Assembly (NCBI GenBank): GCA_000146045.2
Contig: BK006948.2
Span: forward strand, 224,001-288,000
Direction of reading: 5' to 3'
DNA length: 64,000 nucleotides
From: TPA_inf: Saccharomyces
Lineage: Eukaryota
Made by a program: the position numbers and the translations under genes. Below the pieces are notes generated by a model, which saw nothing but the letters and a program-made list of their open reading frames with translations, had not been told where the DNA came from and searched no databases. Positions within the stretch are counted from its first letter, which is position 1; each line of letters begins with the position of its first letter. Shown one piece after another: positions 14,616-22,802 of this stretch.

Positions 14616-16094
<1,479 letters not shown>

Positions 16095-16203
16095 GTGTAC
16101 ATGTACTATACACATAGATGCTAGGAAGATGATGCTAGAACTTGATTAACAATTAGTTAAGGAATATATAATCACACTTCTACATAAATTTGCTGTTTTA
16201 GGC

Positions 16204-17310
16204 TCATTCCTTCTTTCTTTCACCCTTTAGTAGCGAAGTACACCATTTAGCTGCACCAACAGTGTTGCTAGATATGGTGACTATTGTGAAGAAGGGTATT
16301 AACTCTAGTAGACCGGCAGACATACCGAAACATATGAAACTTGCGTAATGCTCGTACTGAAAATCTTTGGCCTGTTTCTTACTGAATCCCTTTAGTAAAA
16401 AGTACCTCTGCAAATAGGTAAAGGTTCTTTTTGGGGCCATTAGTTGATTTGCCAAGATTGGTCCTACAATAGGAATTAGCGACAGTAATGTTAGTGAAGT
16501 AAAATTGGAGACTTTAAAAAACATTCTGAATAGTAATCTGGGAATCTTAAAAATCCGACTTCCCTTTATTGTGTTGAAATTTCTCACCGCATCAGGTTCA
16601 TCGATTTTTCTATGTGGCTTTTGTGGTTTAGGCAATACCTTCACCTCGTTTAGAAATTCATCTTGGTCTTGCAACACCAAAGATATATCAAATATCTGAT
16701 TCGTAATATGGGTCAGGACCAGTGTTCTACAAACAAAGGCAGTCAAGACATTCGTTTGTAAAATCCATTGAATATGAACCAGTATCACACCAAGAGGCCC
16801 TAATAACAGTATGGCCCATGTCACTAAAAGCGGTACAAGTGTGACATAAAAGAGACCAGCAATAGTGACAAAAATCAGGGCATAGCAAACCGCAAACAGT
16901 AAAATATGCTTCCAATAAACAGGATTCGTCAGCACTTCATAAAACCCCTACGGTTAACAAATAAAAATTAAATATGTTAGTCATAAAACAAGTCATATCA
17001 ATGCAAACAAAAATCATGTACTTACTAAGAATGGGTAGATAAATGCTCTTGAGTTGAAAATTTCTTTAATGAAGTTTTTTCTAAGCAGTTCGTATCTCAC
17101 TTTCATTGTTGGTATCGTTTCAGGAAACCAAATATCAAACTGTCTTATGAAAATCTTTAGCCAACGACTTACGTTACTTTCCTTTGAAGAACTGTGTTCT
17201 TTGAATTGTCTTTTTAAACGTTGTGGCCCCTTTTCTGCAAGGGTCATAGAATTAGCATATGTGGCGTGAGAAGCCTGGCTGTGACTTATAAGCTCAATTC
17301 CGGCTTTCAT
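16204..17310 (-). CDS. RRT8: multi-pass membrane protein of the RRT8/LDS family, two exons with a 78-nt intron, ~342 aa
   Basis: Exon 1 is 17026-17310 and exon 2 is 16204-16947. The intron is 16948-17025 on the minus strand, with 5'ss GTAAGT, branch GACTAAC and 3'ss TAG. The exons join in frame (...YPFL|GFYEVLTNPVYWKH...). The product is paralogous to the downstream gene. Confidence 0.7.
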
Positions 17311-17613
17311 CCTTAGTTTGTCTTTACAGCCAACCAGGGGTCCTCAGGGATATACCTTGCCCTTTTTTTCCTTTTTTTGACGTCCCTTCACCTTTCTTGA
17401 AAGTGATTTACTTTATTTAGGTTTTGAAGTTCCGAGTGTAACCACCCTGATTTTCATAAGTCCCCTGATTTCCCAAATTTTTTATGCATATACAAATGTT
17501 GAAAAGAAACGAATATTATTAGCAAGTAATATATAGTATATAGTATATATATATATTTATATATGTAAACATATAATGAATATATAAATTGGTATGTAAA
17601 AGAGTTGCGAGCT

Positions 17614-18747
17614 TCATGGCGGATTAATGTGAGCTATAGATTGTTGGATTGGAGGTGCATAGGATCCTACAGTAGGCTCTTCTGGTTCCGCAGGAGGGGA
17701 AGGAGGTACGGCTGGCTGGTCCCGGTCTTTTATCTCTTTAACTATCCAAAGCGAAGCACCTACTGCGTTTGTTCCAATGAACAACCCACCCAGAATGGGA
17801 ATAGACTCTAATAAACCGCTGGATATCGAGTAAAGGAGCCACTTGGCAAAGCCCTTGTAGTAAACTTTGGAAAGTTTGCGCGAATCCAAATGTAGCACGT
17901 CAACAAAATAAGGCTCAAAATAGTAAAATCCCATTCCGGGGCTAAATGGTAGCATATTGATTGTAATTGGACCCACTATTGGAACGAGCAACAATAAAAG
18001 AAACATAAAGGCTATGAAGATGTACCAGAAGAAAAAAATGAAAAACTGCGGCAAAGAGACGAGGTAAAACCGTTTCGAAAAGAGGCCACCCAAACGATGT
18101 GACCTTCTGTAGACAAAGGGCGTGAAACTTATCGTTTCACAGGCTTCACTCAACTCTGTTAATCCCTTTCTTGCGAACGTCACTCCATAAATACGTGTGA
18201 AAAGAACGAAATCGGTACCCTTCACCATAGAATTACATAGCGTTGTGGAAATCAGAATAGTTTGCATATAAGCCAGAGGTAACGCAAAGAGTCCGAGAAA
18301 GGGCAAATAGATGCACACTAACAAGGACCACGCAAGGATTGACGTAAACGCAACAATAAGCAGGAGATTCAGCAGGTAGTATCCAAATATTAGGAAAAAT
18401 AGATGCAAATAATCCGAGTTTCCCACGGATTCGCTAATTCCCTTCAAAGGCGGTTAGTATGACGGCTTAAAAAACATGATCTGCTTATTGGAACATCAAC
18501 ATACTTTATACGGATACCAGATGATCTGGTGCGACGACTCTAGGTCTTTCCAAAAATTGTCTTTAACAAGCATAGCATTCTTGTACCATCGAACTATCGG
18601 AGCCTTGTATGCCATCCAAATTTTTGATTTCTTATGGTTCCCTTGGTCTTGGATGGGGAGTAATTGTGGTTCCTCCCCTTCTGCCAGTGGCGTAGAGGCA
18701 TATGGATGTCTATGGTAATACCAATCAGGTTGGGGTCTAGTCGACAT
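17614..18747 (-). CDS. LDS2: RRT8/LDS-family multi-pass membrane protein, two exons with a 63-nt intron, ~356 aa
   Basis: Exon 1 is 18505-18747 and exon 2 is 17614-18441. The intron is 18442-18504, with canonical GTATGT, TACTAAC and AG. The exons join in frame (...IIWYPYK|GISESVGNSDYL...). The C-terminal PPSPPAEPEEP tail matches. Confidence 0.7.
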
Positions 18748-18854
18748 GTTTGCTTGGTGTCTTAGCAGCTCTTATAGTTCTAATGCTATAACTAAGAAAG
18801 TAATAATAATAATAATAAAAAGCTTTATATAATGTTTTATTATGGAAGTTTCGT

Positions 18855-18863
18855 TTTTGTGGC
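18855..18863 (-). promoter_or_regulatory. candidate Ndt80 middle-sporulation element (GCCACAAAA, matching GNCRCAAAW) about 110 bp upstream of LDS2 exon 1
   Basis: The top strand reads ttttgtggc at 18855-18863, so the gene strand reads GCCACAAAA. LDS family genes are induced in sporulation. Confidence 0.4.
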
Positions 18864-19496
18864 GCGACGCGATCAGCCAAAATCAGCGGAAAAATTCGTC
18901 GGAACATTTTTTTCTTTTTTGGCCAAGCTATTGTTACAGGTGGGGCAGGGGCAAGAGACGATATGTCATCGCGAAGCTGTAAAGACACTTGTCGAAGTGA
19001 TAAAGCGCAAGAGCTGTTTGTCTACGGAACCAGCAAGTACTATCTAATAGCGTGTTCCAGAGAATAACAGCATTTTTCAACTTCTTTCTCCTGGTGTGAG
19101 TAATCAGTACGTGAAAAGAGAACGAAGTTAAAAAAAAAAACAAGAAAAAGAAACAAGATCAAAAGAAACGATAAAGGCTGGCTTATAAAATAATAGCATC
19201 GCGAACGATCAATAAGGGGCCCTGTTTATTTTTAACAAAGTTTACATATTTCGTTTTCCTCTTTAAGCTGACATCACGTCTATACCCTGTTTTATTCCTT
19301 GTTAGAAACATAACGGAGCAGGTAGTAACAACAACAGTATAAACTATCATAAACTTTTTTCCTTCCTTATTGGTGACTTTTAACACTTAGAATTCTAAGT
19401 CTGGCAAGAACAGTAATCATACTTCTTTGCAGGGCGTTTTATTGTTACTCCTCTGCCCTGCTAGATTAAAGTAAAGAATCATAAACAAAGAACACA

Positions 19497-22400
19497 ATGA
19501 CATACCCGGTTAGTGCAGCCGCTCCTGCCGACATTTCATATTCTAAAAATACCCCGTTGGTAGGGCTCTCTAAACCTCCATGCTTGTACCAACACGCTTC
19601 CTCGTCCGTCGATTCGTTTTCGTCAACATTCAGTGATGATGATCGTTCGGACCTTGTTGCTGTACCTAATGAGTCGCCGCATGCATTTTCGTATAATCCC
19701 ATATCACCAAACTCACTGGGAGTAAGGTTGACCATCTTAAGAAGGTCTTTGGAAATAATGGTAAACAGTCCTGACATCTTACATGAGTTGAAGAAAAAAG
19801 CACCCGTAATAGCATACCCCCCCTCACTTAGACACACAAGAAACTTAACAGAGACTGCCACGTTATCAGCATCGCGAGATCCGTTAAATGGGTCTCTAAT
19901 TTCACCATTAGTATCCAATATGCCATCTCCTGCTAGTAGACCCGTGATACAGAGAGCAACGTCCTTAATGGTGTTGCCTGATAATGATACTGCCAGTAAA
20001 CTGAATCCAGCCAAGTCCGAGTTAGAAAACTTGTTATTCTTGCTAAATTTAGCATTGGAAAACAATTCCTTCGAAAGAGCTTCCGATTTACACATGCTAT
20101 CGTTATTGAATATCAAGAAAATAAACTTTGATTCAGACATTCAAAAATCAGAAACTTTGAAAAAGGTTTTATTAGATAGTTTAGCAGAACCATTTTTTGA
20201 AAACTACAAGAAGTTCCCTCACAAAGATTTAGGTTCGAAATCGCAATATAATGAATATGAGGAGAAACACGATGATATAGTCTCCTTAGCAGACATCAAA
20301 CCACAACAGGACTATAGCCGAATTCTTCATCCTTTCACATCTGCAAAAAATTCTGGTCCAGAGGCCATTTTTACATGTTCTCAACAATACCCCTGGAACT
20401 TCAAAGCTGCCAATGATTTGGCGTGTCTAACGTTCGGTATATCAAAGAATGTTATCAAGGCACTTACTTTACTAGACCTTATTCATACGGATAGCAGAAA
20501 TTTTGTTCTAGAGAAAATCATGAATGCAGAAGATGATAACCAAGAAATTGTGTTTACCGGAGAAACTATACCTATCGTCCAGCCAAATTCGACAAGCAAT
20601 AATAATGTACCAAATCTGATTTGGGCTTCACTATGGGCCAAGCGGAAGAATGGCCTACTGGTCTGCGTATTTGAAAAAACGCCTTGCGATTACATTGACG
20701 TCATGTTAAACTTGAGAGATTTTTCAGTGGACAGCATTATTGATACAACACACTTTCTGGAAAACTTTGACAAGAAAAAGCAGCAAGAATCAACTTCGCC
20801 AATGACAGAAAAGAAAACGGTAAAATTTGCAAATGAAATTCACGATATTGGGTCAGTAAGTCACTCACTGAGTAAACTAATTGATGATGTACGTTTTGGA
20901 AAAGTGTTTTCTGCAGATGATGATTTATTACCCTTGTCTATCAGGGTGGCAAATCATGTCAACGAAGAGAGATATTTTACGTTGAATTGTCTATCTGAAA
21001 ATATACCATGTGCTGTTACAACTTCCGTATTGGAAAACGAAATAAAATTAAAAATTCATAGTTTGCCCTATCAGGCTGGGCTATTTATTGTTGACAGTCA
21101 CACTTTAAGTCTTTTAAGTTTCAACAAATCAGTCGCCAAAAACATGTTTGGCTTGCGACTTCACGAGTTGGCCGGTAGTTCGGTTACTAAGTTGGTTCCT
21201 TCTTTGGCGGACATGATATCTTATATCAATAAAACTTATCCTATGTTAAATATCACATTACCAGAAAATAAAGGATTGGTTTTAACAGAACATTTTTTCA
21301 GAAAAATTGAGGCTGAAATGCATCATGATAAGGACTCGTTTTACACTTCTATTGGTCTAGACGGCTGTCACAAAGATGGTAATTTGATAAAGGTGGATGT
21401 TCAATTACGGGTCTTGAATACGAATGCTGTATTATTATGGATTACACACTCAAGAGACGTGGTCATTGAAAATTATACCACCGTTCCTTCGCAGCTACCG
21501 ATGTTAAAGGAGAACGAAATTGATGTCGTTGGCAGTAGAGGTAGTTCCAGTGCATCTTCCAAGAAATCTTCGGAAAAAATTCCTGTGAATACTTTGAAGG
21601 CAATGGCTGATCTGTCGATTAGCTCCGCTGAAACGATTTCTAATTCAGACGATGAAGTAGACTTAAATCAAGTGAATGAAAAACTACGAGAAACTTCTTG
21701 CGGTAAAGTGAGAGGTATCGAATCTAATGACAACAATAACTATGACGATGACATGACAATGGTTGATGATCCTGAGTTAAAACATAAAATTGAATTAACG
21801 AAAATGTACACGCAGGACAAATCAAAATTTGTAAAGGACGACAACTTTAAAGTGGATGAAAAATTTATAATGAGGATAATTGAACCGATAAACGGAGAAG
21901 AAATCAAAAAGGAAACAAATGAGCTAGACAAAAGAAATTCTACTTTAAAAGCTACGTACTTGACTACTCCAGAGGCTAATATAGGCTCACAAAAGCGCAT
22001 AAAGAAATTTTCTGATTTTACTATTCTGCAAGTGATGGGTGAGGGTGCGTACGGTAAAGTCAATTTATGCATTCATAACAGAGAACACTATATCGTGGTC
22101 ATCAAAATGATTTTCAAAGAGAGGATTTTAGTAGACACATGGGTGAGAGATAGAAAATTAGGTACTATACCTTCTGAGATCCAAATTATGGCGACCTTGA
22201 ATAAAAATTCCCAAGAAAATATCTTGAAGTTATTAGATTTTTTTGAAGATGACGATTATTATTACATTGAAACACCGGTCCATGGAGAAACTGGTAGTAT
22301 TGATCTATTTGATGTTATCGAATTCAAAAAAGATATGGTTGAACATGAAGCTAAACTGGTGTTTAAACAGGTAGTCGCTAGTATAAAGCATTTACATGAC

Positions 22401-22802
22401 CAAGGAATTGTTCATAGAGACATAAAGGACGAAAATGTTATTGTTGATTCTCATGGCTTTGTAAAATTAATCGATTTCGGTTCGGCTGCCTATATCAAGA
22501 GTGGACCATTCGATGTTTTTGTGGGAACAATGGACTATGCTGCACCTGAAGTCCTTGGTGGTTCCTCTTACAAAGGTAAACCACAAGATATTTGGGCTCT
22601 TGGTGTGCTACTTTATACCATAATTTATAAAGAGAATCCTTATTACAACATTGATGAAATCTTGGAAGGTGAATTAAGGTTCGATAAATCGGAACATGTC
22701 AGTGAAGAATGCATCAGTTTGATAAAAAGAATTTTGACAAGAGAAGTTGATAAAAGACCTACTATTGATGAAATATATGAAGATAAATGGCTTAAAATCT
22801 AG
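19497..22802 (+). CDS. PSK2: PAS-domain Ser/Thr protein kinase, 1101 aa, with C-terminal kinase domain
   Basis: The kinase subdomains are present (GEGAYGKV...HRDIKDEN...DFGSA...APE) with an upstream PAS-like region. The 1101-aa length matches YOL045W. Confidence 0.85.
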   Translation: MTYPVSAAAPADISYSKNTPLVGLSKPPCLYQHASSSVDSFSSTFSDDDRSDLVAVPNESPHAFSYNPISPNSLGVRLTILRRSLEIMVNSPDILHELKKKAPVIAYPPSLRHTRNLTETATLSASRDPLNGSLISPLVSNMPSPASRPVIQRATSLMVLPDNDTASKLNPAKSELENLLFLLNLALENNSFERASDLHMLSLLNIKKINFDSDIQKSETLKKVLLDSLAEPFFENYKKFPHKDLGSKSQYNEYEEKHDDIVSLADIKPQQDYSRILHPFTSAKNSGPEAIFTCSQQYPWNFKAANDLACLTFGISKNVIKALTLLDLIHTDSRNFVLEKIMNAEDDNQEIVFTGETIPIVQPNSTSNNNVPNLIWASLWAKRKNGLLVCVFEKTPCDYIDVMLNLRDFSVDSIIDTTHFLENFDKKKQQESTSPMTEKKTVKFANEIHDIGSVSHSLSKLIDDVRFGKVFSADDDLLPLSIRVANHVNEERYFTLNCLSENIPCAVTTSVLENEIKLKIHSLPYQAGLFIVDSHTLSLLSFNKSVAKNMFGLRLHELAGSSVTKLVPSLADMISYINKTYPMLNITLPENKGLVLTEHFFRKIEAEMHHDKDSFYTSIGLDGCHKDGNLIKVDVQLRVLNTNAVLLWITHSRDVVIENYTTVPSQLPMLKENEIDVVGSRGSSSASSKKSSEKIPVNTLKAMADLSISSAETISNSDDEVDLNQVNEKLRETSCGKVRGIESNDNNNYDDDMTMVDDPELKHKIELTKMYTQDKSKFVKDDNFKVDEKFIMRIIEPINGEEIKKETNELDKRNSTLKATYLTTPEANIGSQKRIKKFSDFTILQVMGEGAYGKVNLCIHNREHYIVVIKMIFKERILVDTWVRDRKLGTIPSEIQIMATLNKNSQENILKLLDFFEDDDYYYIETPVHGETGSIDLFDVIEFKKDMVEHEAKLVFKQVVASIKHLHDQGIVHRDIKDENVIVDSHGFVKLIDFGSAAYIKSGPFDVFVGTMDYAAPEVLGGSSYKGKPQDIWALGVLLYTIIYKENPYYNIDEILEGELRFDKSEHVSEECISLIKRILTREVDKRPTIDEIYEDKWLKI

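Follow-up and report, generated by a model that had tools for sequence, protein, structure and literature searches.

Introns activated by Mer1 and Nam8 are carried by the sporulation genes AMA1, MER2/REC107, MER3/HFM1, and SPO22, and they are among the closest described systems for the two introns considered here. The Mer1 enhancer (AYACCCUY) is intronic and lies 18-25 nt from the 5' splice site (reviewed in PMC11585973). [quoted passage not shown] GACUAAC is a rare non-consensus branchpoint, and a fairly long 5' exon has been noted for some regulated meiotic introns (PMC3082912). The intron of SAE3 is also meiotic, is Tgs1- and Npl3-dependent, and ends in AAG, a rare 3' splice site (PMC3141232). 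Stable excised linear introns, with a short distance between branch point and 3' splice site, have been described in a 2026 bioRxiv study, whose text names neither LDS2 nor RRT8. The RRT8 and LDS2 proteins have been located to lipid droplets and have redundant roles in the outer spore wall (PMC3744438), and Rrt8 was detected in a vegetative lipid-particle proteome (PMC3229976).

The window is the whole stretch of S. cerevisiae chromosome XV that was analysed (64,000 nucleotides), and chromosomal coordinates are window positions plus 224,000. It contains RRT8 (YOL048C) and LDS2 (YOL047C) as a minus-strand pair flanked by GSH2 and PSK2. The features of the two genes, in window positions, are the following.

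17026-17310, minus strand: RRT8 exon 1 (ATG at 17310; 285 nt, 95 codons), a hydrophilic N-terminal region ending ...IYPFL
16948-17025, minus strand: RRT8 intron (78 nt, phase 0), whose removal gives exactly NP_014594.2, with published junction reads
17025-17020, minus strand: RRT8 5' splice site GTAAGT
16982-16976, minus strand: RRT8 branch site GACTAAC (context tGACTAAC), branch A at 16977
16950-16948, minus strand: RRT8 3' splice site TAG
16204-16947, minus strand: RRT8 exon 2 (247 codons plus stop), with the entire EI24/CysZ-like membrane domain
18505-18747, minus strand: LDS2 exon 1 (ATG at 18747; 243 nt, 81 codons), ending ...IIWYPYK
18442-18504, minus strand: LDS2 intron (63 nt, phase 0), whose removal gives exactly LDS2_YEAST
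18504-18499, minus strand: LDS2 5' splice site GTATGT
18459-18453, minus strand: LDS2 branch site TACTAAC, branch A at 18454
18444-18442, minus strand: LDS2 3' splice site AAG, only 12 nt past branch A
17614-18441, minus strand: LDS2 exon 2 (275 codons plus stop), the homolog of RRT8 exon 2, coding for the membrane domain and for a C-terminal tail rich in proline

The gene names given in an earlier note made from the sequence were right, and its coordinates were exact to the single base for both genes. Spliced translations of RRT8 and LDS2 match the S288C reference proteins exactly (RRT8_YEAST/NP_014594.2 and LDS2_YEAST); therefore, the intron-exon structure is already annotated. Comparison of the reference annotation with the window gave zero differences, and intron coordinates, lengths, and splice sites are those of the tables in PMC3983031 and PMC12350175. 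The latter lists the RRT8 intron at chrXV:240947-241025 (78 nt) and the LDS2 intron at chrXV:242441-242504 (63 nt), and Table S4 of PMC3983031 gives the LDS2 intron as GTATGT/AAG. Both introns, with coordinates and splice sites, are thus already known from the reference annotation and published intron tables, and the functions of both genes are already known from publications.

Splicing of both genes is obligatory; unspliced RNA reaches a stop two to three codons into the intron, ahead of any membrane segment. RRT8 reads through to a stop three codons in (...PFLVST*), and LDS2 does so after two (...PYKVC*). There is no hydrophobic segment in RRT8 exon 1, and those of the full protein lie at aa 104-160, 243-265, and 297-320. 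The proposal of same-strand tandem paralogs that each require their own short intron is supported. In RRT8, branch A lies 48 nt from the 5' splice site and 29 nt from the 3' splice site. An upstream in-frame GTAAGT in RRT8 exon 1 (17172-17167) was considered as an alternative donor and rejected; its use is at trace level (0, 1, 0, and 2 reads), and S. kudriavzevii does not conserve it. Taken as a whole, the locus is best read (probability about 0.85) as the known RRT8/LDS2 paralogs with one old, obligatory phase-0 intron each, in which the variant RRT8 signals are tolerated. The two products are membrane proteins of lipid droplets, paralogous to each other, and the outer spore wall depends on them.

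In a BLASTP comparison, the spliced proteins are 26% identical over 270 aa (E = 9e-16), and the motifs that had been noticed as shared by the two genes (PIVGPI and LLE.IP...N.VGA..W) lie inside this alignment. The Pfam EI24 family (PF07264) has a gathering threshold of 32 bits. RRT8 aa 92-319 cover profile positions 1-197 of 199, with scores of 31.1 bits for S. cerevisiae (just below threshold), 31.2 for S. uvarum, 33.0 for T. globosa, and 44.3 for K. naganishii; the last two orthologs exceed the family cut-off. LDS2 and its S. kudriavzevii ortholog gave no match to this profile. The fungal RRT8/LDS2 branch (about 180 representative sequences) is divergent from EI24/CysZ proteins, and it is lipid-droplet associated and not a known transporter.

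Both introns occupy one aligned phase-0 site, YPFL|GFYE in RRT8 and YPYK|GISE in LDS2 (motif YPxx|G), immediately ahead of the EI24/CysZ-like membrane domain. The same site is used by the RRT8 genes of K. naganishii, K. africana, T. globosa, and V. polyspora, by an LDS-like gene of V. polyspora, and in Lipomyces tetrasporus. Because RRT8 and LDS2-like genes of other yeasts, Lipomyces included, share the site, the intron is older than the duplication, and it would have been inherited from the gene ancestral to the duplication of this family. The RRT8-LDS2 tandem arrangement is older than the whole-genome duplication. The local duplication proposed earlier therefore stands as a duplication, but only as a very old event that preceded the whole-genome duplication. 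LDS1 was represented in the comparison by its N. dairenensis, K. africana, and T. globosa orthologs. This comparative work is of modest use for annotation and intron evolution: it identifies an old intron position common to paralogs, shows repeated intron loss inside the RRT8/LDS family, and reveals that some public gene models of other yeasts are truncated.

Conservation of exons and splice signals was compared in five Saccharomyces species. The earlier note had proposed looking at orthologs, and those of Saccharomyces keep the introns and splice signals, with exon-1 frames open. In RRT8, exon 1 is open in all five species and under purifying selection (dN/dS 0.25-0.41), although its first ~45 residues evolve fast; exon 2 has dN/dS of 0.03-0.04. 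Exon 1 of LDS2 is likewise open in the five species and under purifying selection (dN/dS 0.03-0.06; amino-acid identity 85-94% across Saccharomyces). In LDS2, TACTAAC, AAG, and the 12-nt spacing are each present in 5/5. In RRT8, GTAAGT and TAG occur in 5/5 and GACTAAC in 4/5, with S. uvarum having GGCTAAC; the branch heptamer begins with G in every species. Fifteen of the 16 splice-signal positions of the RRT8 intron are invariant, versus about one third of its remaining positions. With that third unchanged too, the persistence of the RRT8 non-consensus bases in five close species supports selection only weakly. Intron lengths vary between species, out of frame. The introns and exon-1 frames are more than chance.

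Intron retention in vegetative cells was assessed from two published data sets (PMC3983031 and PMC12350175). The annotated RRT8 junction has 485, 462, 628, and 483 reads in wild type, upf1Δ, upf2Δ, and upf3Δ, respectively, and RRT8 RPKM in these strains is 78, 68, 77, and 73, unchanged without nonsense-mediated decay (PMC3983031 Table S5). These are vegetative reads at the predicted junction, 17026|16947. Retention is expressed as the ratio of intron coverage to coding-region coverage. In cells without inhibitor, 143 of 288 yeast introns have ratios below 0.05, and only 28 exceed 0.5 (PMC12350175). The RRT8 ratio is 0.036 (PMC12350175), and the intron falls in the better-spliced half of yeast introns in vegetative cells. 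The LDS2 (YOL047C) ratio is 0.675 (PMC12350175), a value that may be too high, through overlapping or antisense transcripts, if strand-specific libraries were not used. For LDS2, RPKM and splice sites are tabulated in PMC3983031 Table S4, and its transcript level is unchanged in upf mutants.

LDS2 vegetative RPKM is about 250, which is unexpectedly high for a sporulation-induced gene.

For vegetative cells, these data contradict the earlier idea of inefficient or conditional splicing of RRT8: the ratio is low, there are ~460-630 junction reads per strain, and there is no response to loss of nonsense-mediated decay. The RRT8 intron is spliced efficiently in published RNA data, and the finding is therefore ordinary. 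The LDS2 intron had been called fully canonical, but it ends in AAG, not YAG, 12 nt from branch A. Of the two introns, that of LDS2 is probably the less efficiently removed in vegetative cells. A conserved YAG is located 8 nt downstream of the LDS2 AAG. Its use as a non-productive alternative 3' splice site is disfavoured, at least in vegetative cells, because PMC3983031 Table S4 places YOL047C among genes without alternative junctions, upf mutants included.

Induction during sporulation is reported for LDS2 but not for RRT8 (PMC3744438). An MSE-like element had been noted upstream of LDS2, and it exists and is phylogenetically conserved.

18863-18855, minus strand: MSE-like element GCCACAAAA, 108 nt upstream of the LDS2 ATG, matching GNCRCAAAW

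The element lies inside a 21-nt block, GATCGCGTCGCGCCACAAAAA, that S. cerevisiae, S. kudriavzevii, and S. uvarum share without change. The 64-kb window shows no MSE enrichment (11 matches versus 10.7 expected from shuffles), so the motif is not above chance and the support for its function comes from conservation. No match to the MSE consensus gNCRCAAA(A/T) was found upstream of RRT8. The timing of LDS2 expression may be set mainly by Ndt80 acting at the conserved MSE. The literature search found no evidence on Ndt80 dependence of LDS2 induction. A scan for bacterial-type promoters and terminators was set aside as irrelevant to a yeast locus.

Other readings of the introns were weighed against these data. 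That the introns are not real, with exon 1 either untranslated leader or decayed remnant and translation starting within exon 2, is effectively refuted. Exon-1 frames are open and selected, splice signals are kept while the intron interior diverges and its length shifts out of frame, RRT8 junction reads are published, and both the conserved YPxxG motif and the beginning of the EI24 profile run across the junction. The public gene models of the T. globosa and V. polyspora orthologs do consist of exon 2 only, but upstream exons and introns are readily located at the same site in these species, and the fast change of the first residues of RRT8 is the other point in favor of this reading. It is improbable that RRT8, with its doubly non-consensus intron, is weakly spliced in vegetative cells and that Mer1/Nam8-type activators, or relieved competition for the spliceosome, switch on or enhance its splicing in meiosis. 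The GUAAGU and GACUAAC deviations are real, as had been claimed, and kept in Saccharomyces; GACUAAC is also the branch site of the Mer1/Nam8-dependent MER3 intron (PMC3082912), and the 285-nt 5' exon of RRT8 is fairly long. RRT8 acts in spore wall formation, but it is not sporulation-induced (PMC3744438), its protein is present in vegetative cells (PMC3229976), and its vegetative ratio, hundreds of junction reads, and stable level in upf mutants speak against poor vegetative splicing. The Mer1 enhancer AYACCCUY has no match in either intron, and the one match nearby (16292-16299) falls well inside RRT8 exon 2. When both introns were folded with their flanks, neither was more structured than shuffled controls (z = 0.84 for RRT8 and 0.18 for LDS2); for this reason, the idea of a SAE3-like inhibitory hairpin was dropped. 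GUAAGU is the full complement of the U1 snRNA 5' end and pairs perfectly with its ACUUAC motif. This 5' splice site occurs in 5 of 96 introns of one published table, and the U1 ACUUAC motif is named in PMC3753624. The literature search found no mer1Δ or nam8Δ data for RRT8 or LDS2 and no meiotic or sporulation splicing time course for these genes; RRT8 splicing may thus increase further, or LDS2 splicing switch, during sporulation.

A regulated intron of meiotic type is a better candidate in LDS2 than in RRT8, but it is still unlikely. The LDS2 intron would be poorly removed in vegetative cells through the AAG 12 nt from the branch point and efficiently removed in sporulation, as a second lock over Ndt80-dependent transcription. 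Its vegetative ratio places it among the 28 most retained of 288 introns, beside MEI4 (0.79), HOP2 (0.74), and SAE3 (0.88), and poor vegetative splicing is compatible with the LDS2 value; this coverage ratio, however, is possibly confounded by other transcripts over the locus. The AAG and its spacing are invariant in five species, the gene is sporulation-induced (PMC3744438), and the rare AAG is common to LDS2 and the regulated SAE3 intron (PMC3141232). In SAE3, however, splicing was no better once a UAG 3' splice site had been restored (PMC3141232), and AAG alone therefore need not be limiting. The unchanged LDS2 level in upf mutants is also unexpected if there is a large cytoplasmic unspliced pool. 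Regulated splicing of LDS2 may already be on record in meiotic splicing surveys. If this reading is true, LDS2 would join the meiotic splicing regulon by a 3'-end-limited mechanism rather than by a weak 5' splice site. Under the preferred reading of one old, obligatory intron in each paralog, the RRT8 variants GUAAGU and GACUAAC would be tolerated and lineage-stable, with no conditional splicing imposed by them. Departure from consensus failed to predict splicing efficiency at this locus, where the "non-canonical" RRT8 intron is well spliced and the "canonical-looking" LDS2 intron is retained. The discovery value is low, and the useful outcome is a corrected emphasis on which intron is retained (LDS2, not RRT8).

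Compared with the Mer1/Nam8-activated introns, RRT8 shares GACUAAC with MER3, and it resembles the group as a sporulation gene with a fairly long 5' exon. Unlike that group, it has no AYACCCUY in its intron and is transcribed and efficiently spliced in vegetative cells. [quoted passage not shown] Like the SAE3 intron, LDS2 combines the rare AAG with a high vegetative coverage ratio (0.875 for SAE3 versus 0.675 for LDS2), whereas the non-consensus branch site UAUUAAC and the inhibitory hairpin belong to SAE3. With respect to stable excised linear introns, the RRT8 distance is 29 nt and its signals are non-consensus, while LDS2 has the sequence features required for that class (12 nt, GTATGT, and TACTAAC) and would be a candidate for it.

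The intron-exon structure of RRT8 (YOL048C) and LDS2 (YOL047C) is already annotated and characterised, and the earlier note described it accurately and named both genes rightly. The minus strand of 15900-19100 was read and its ORFs were listed; all coordinates proposed earlier were confirmed. The features are as follows.

14619-16094, plus: GSH2, neighbouring gene
17310-17026, minus: RRT8 exon 1, 285 nt, 95 codons
17025-16948, minus: RRT8 intron, 78 nt (GTAAGT at 17025, tGACTAAC at 16982-16976, TAG ending at 16948)
18747-18505, minus: LDS2 exon 1, 243 nt, 81 codons
18504-18442, minus: LDS2 intron, 63 nt (GTATGT at 18504, TACTAAC at 18459-18453, AAG at 18444-18442)
19497-22802, plus: PSK2 kinase gene, neighbouring gene

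Each unspliced first exon runs into a stop, as had been claimed: the RRT8 frame ends ...PFLVST-stop, with in-frame stops inside the 78-nt intron, and the LDS2 frame ends ...PYKVC-stop. The joined exons encode 342 aa (RRT8) and 356 aa (LDS2), and the translations match S288C Rrt8p (NP_014594.2, RRT8_YEAST) and Lds2p (LDS2_YEAST) exactly. The introns are tabulated at chrXV:240947-241025 (RRT8, 78 nt) and chrXV:242441-242504 (YOL047C, 63 nt) (PMC12350175), so window positions plus 224,000 give chromosome XV coordinates. Because of these exact matches and published tables, the structure deduced from the sequence is the reference annotation. The two proteins are related, as proposed (BLASTP, 26% identity over 270 residues, E = 9e-16), and their intron sites coincide in the alignment (YPFL/GFYE vs YPYK/GISE, the slash marking the intron). 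A 224-aa ORF antisense to the 5' part of PSK2 (19466-20140, minus) is probably a spurious overlap.

Splice signals were compared across S. cerevisiae, S. paradoxus, S. mikatae, S. kudriavzevii, and S. uvarum, and both genes have introns in all five species, with the exon-1 frame open; the uninterrupted sensu stricto ORFs that the earlier note had weighed against its model did not appear. RRT8 introns (76-82 nt) have GTAAGT and TAG in 5/5 species and GACTAAC in 4/5 (GGCTAAC in S. uvarum); when aligned, they are invariant at 15 of 16 signal positions vs roughly one third of the others. LDS2 introns (59-63 nt) have GTATGT in 4/5 (GTACGT in S. uvarum), and TACTAAC, the AAG 3' splice site, and a distance of only 12 nt from branch A to that site are invariant in all five; for S. 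mikatae, TACTAAC and the spacing were read off the intron itself. Across the species, intron length is not constant modulo 3. Relative to S. cerevisiae, dN/dS is 0.25-0.41 for RRT8 exon 1 (57-80% amino-acid identity within Saccharomyces), 0.03-0.06 for LDS2 exon 1, and 0.03-0.13 for exon 2 of both genes (0.03-0.04 for RRT8). Within RRT8 exon 1 (17026-17310), the first ~45 residues evolve fast and the last ~45 are strongly conserved.

Beyond Saccharomyces, an intron was found at the same phase-0 site in the following homologs (5' splice site, branch site, 3' splice site).

K. naganishii RRT8: GTAAGT, TACTAAC, TAG
K. africana RRT8: GTATGT, TACTAAC, TAG
T. globosa RRT8 (locus L003, 4859-4919): GTTTGT, TACTAAC, CAG
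V. polyspora RRT8: GTATGT, TACTGAC, TAG
V. polyspora upstream LDS-like gene: GTATGT, TACTAAC, TAG
Lipomyces tetrasporus homolog: intron site YPFV/GICY

The intron is absent from the copies in Komagataella phaffii and Kluyveromyces marxianus, from N. dairenensis LDS1, from the two T. globosa LDS-like genes, and, going by published coordinates, from A. gossypii ADL027W. The simplest reading of these sequences is a single ancient intron, passed to both paralogs and later lost several times, with uninterrupted ORFs thus occurring only in intron-loss lineages and not in sensu stricto orthologs. Three public models contain exon 2 only (T. globosa HG536_0F03840, V. polyspora Kpol_233p3, and the V. 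polyspora LDS-like gene upstream of Kpol_233p3); in each, the genomic sequence has a further exon upstream and, at the conserved site, an intron whose splice signals are good (L003:4859-4919 in T. globosa; L004:2497-2585 and L004:470-573 in V. polyspora).

The local duplication proposed earlier is real, but it is old. T. globosa belongs to a lineage not known to have undergone the whole-genome duplication, and its LDS1-like gene (L003:813-1706), LDS2-like gene (L003:1817-2668), and RRT8 (up to L003:5630) form one array beside GSH2. In a BLAST matrix and a tree built by neighbour-joining alone, with S. cerevisiae LDS1 left out, the T. globosa LDS1-like gene clusters tightly with N. dairenensis and K. 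africana LDS1 (~240-260 bits, vs ~45-50 bits against LDS2). The array and this grouping argue for the greater age of the duplication, and the LDS1, LDS2, and RRT8 clades seem to be older than the whole-genome duplication. LDS1 and LDS2 have been called a duplication pair (PMC3744438); the pair may instead be what remains after reciprocal loss among older tandem copies. The convergent RRT8-GSH2 pair (14619-17310) is retained from Komagataella phaffii to Saccharomyces (loci L001-L003, L005, L008, and L011).

LDS1, LDS2, and RRT8 form a group of paralogs whose proteins localize to lipid droplets adjoining the prospore membrane as it forms; dityrosine fluorescence is missing in the triple mutant, and spores of the rrt8Δ single mutant are ether-sensitive (PMC3744438). 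Vegetative cells, too, show Rrt8-GFP on lipid droplets (PMC3744438), and Rrt8 peptides occur in the vegetative lipid-particle proteome (PMC3229976). A Candida dubliniensis ortholog has been linked to the chitosan layer of chlamydospores (PMC8092133). RRT8 residues 92-319 align along almost the full Pfam EI24/CysZ profile with 31.1 bits, slightly below the cut-off of 32 bits; the ortholog of K. naganishii reaches 44.3 bits, and LDS2 gave no match to this profile. Exon 2 holds every hydrophobic segment, so the intron falls between the membrane domain and an N-terminal extension that is hydrophilic. An exhaustive search yielded only 182 representative relatives, and those looked up by name belong to Saccharomycotina and Dactylellina.

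LDS2 is induced in sporulation, whereas RRT8 is not (PMC3744438). Upstream of LDS2, GCCACAAAA at 18863-18855 fits the consensus of the MSE, an Ndt80-type element. This site, pointed out earlier, is present and conserved in three species, but the motif is no commoner than chance (11 matches in the window vs 10.7 expected) and by itself carries no weight. It lies within a 21-nt block, GATCGCGTCGCGCCACAAAAA, that S. cerevisiae, S. kudriavzevii, and S. uvarum share without a single change; its flanks diverge. A motif search of the window found no MSE upstream of RRT8, and this fits the difference in expression that has been reported (PMC3744438). Further blocks invariant in the three species lie at 18870-18990 (minus), CGCGATGAC and TTGCCCCTGCCCCACCT..AACAATAGCT. 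A (TTA)6 run between the MSE and the LDS2 ATG (18801-18818) is not conserved.

Among yeast introns, 76% have the 5' splice site GUAUGU (PMC11585973), GTAAGT occurs in 5 of 96 in one published table (PMC3983031 Table S4), and GACUAAC is a rare non-consensus branch point (PMC3082912); the deviation of RRT8 at both signals is genuine. Inefficient or conditional splicing, which the earlier note drew from it, is contradicted for vegetative cells by published data. The annotated YOL048C junction (GTAAGT/TAG) has 485, 462, 628, and 483 reads in wild type, upf1Δ, upf2Δ, and upf3Δ, respectively, and RPKM is steady at 78, 68, 77, and 73 (PMC3983031 Table S5), giving no sign of an unspliced pool sensitive to nonsense-mediated decay. 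In an independent data set, the ratio of intron to coding-region coverage for RRT8 is 0.036 without splicing inhibitor and 0.90 with it; without inhibitor, 143 of 288 introns fall below 0.05 (PMC12350175). A second GTAAGT, in frame within exon 1 (17167-17172, minus) and 147 nt before the genuine 5' splice site, is joined to the normal 3' splice site in 0/1/0/2 junction reads, indicating trace use (PMC3983031 Table S5), and is not conserved in S. kudriavzevii. No Mer1 enhancer (AYACCCUY) was found by motif search in the RRT8 or LDS2 intron, and no unusual RNA folding was predicted for either. GUAAGU can pair along its full length with the U1 ACUUAC motif, so the RRT8 5' splice site is not weak for U1.

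The LDS2 intron had been considered fully canonical, which does not hold for its AAG 3' splice site, described as rare (PMC3141232) and used in 8 of 96 introns (PMC3983031 Table S4). A YAG (TAG or CAG) lies 8 nt beyond the AAG, in exon 2 (18434-18436, minus), in 5/5 Saccharomyces species. Splicing to it would shift the frame, and it is probably unused in vegetative cells because YOL047C is among the genes without alternative junctions, even in upf mutants (PMC3983031 Table S4). In vegetative haploids, LDS2 RPKM is ~250 vs ~75 for RRT8 and is unchanged in upf mutants (PMC3983031), a level unexpected for a gene described as sporulation-induced (PMC3744438). Both the RPKM and the high intron coverage might be accounted for by a transcript that overlaps LDS2 or runs antisense to it, or by a non-productive isoform; the coverage may stem from regulated splicing or from other transcripts across the locus. 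Should one of the two introns be regulated, LDS2 is the likelier candidate on this evidence. Its vegetative coverage ratio of 0.675 is among the 28 of 288 above 0.5 and is near those of the known meiotic introns of MEI4 (0.79), HOP2 (0.74), and SAE3 (0.88) (PMC12350175).
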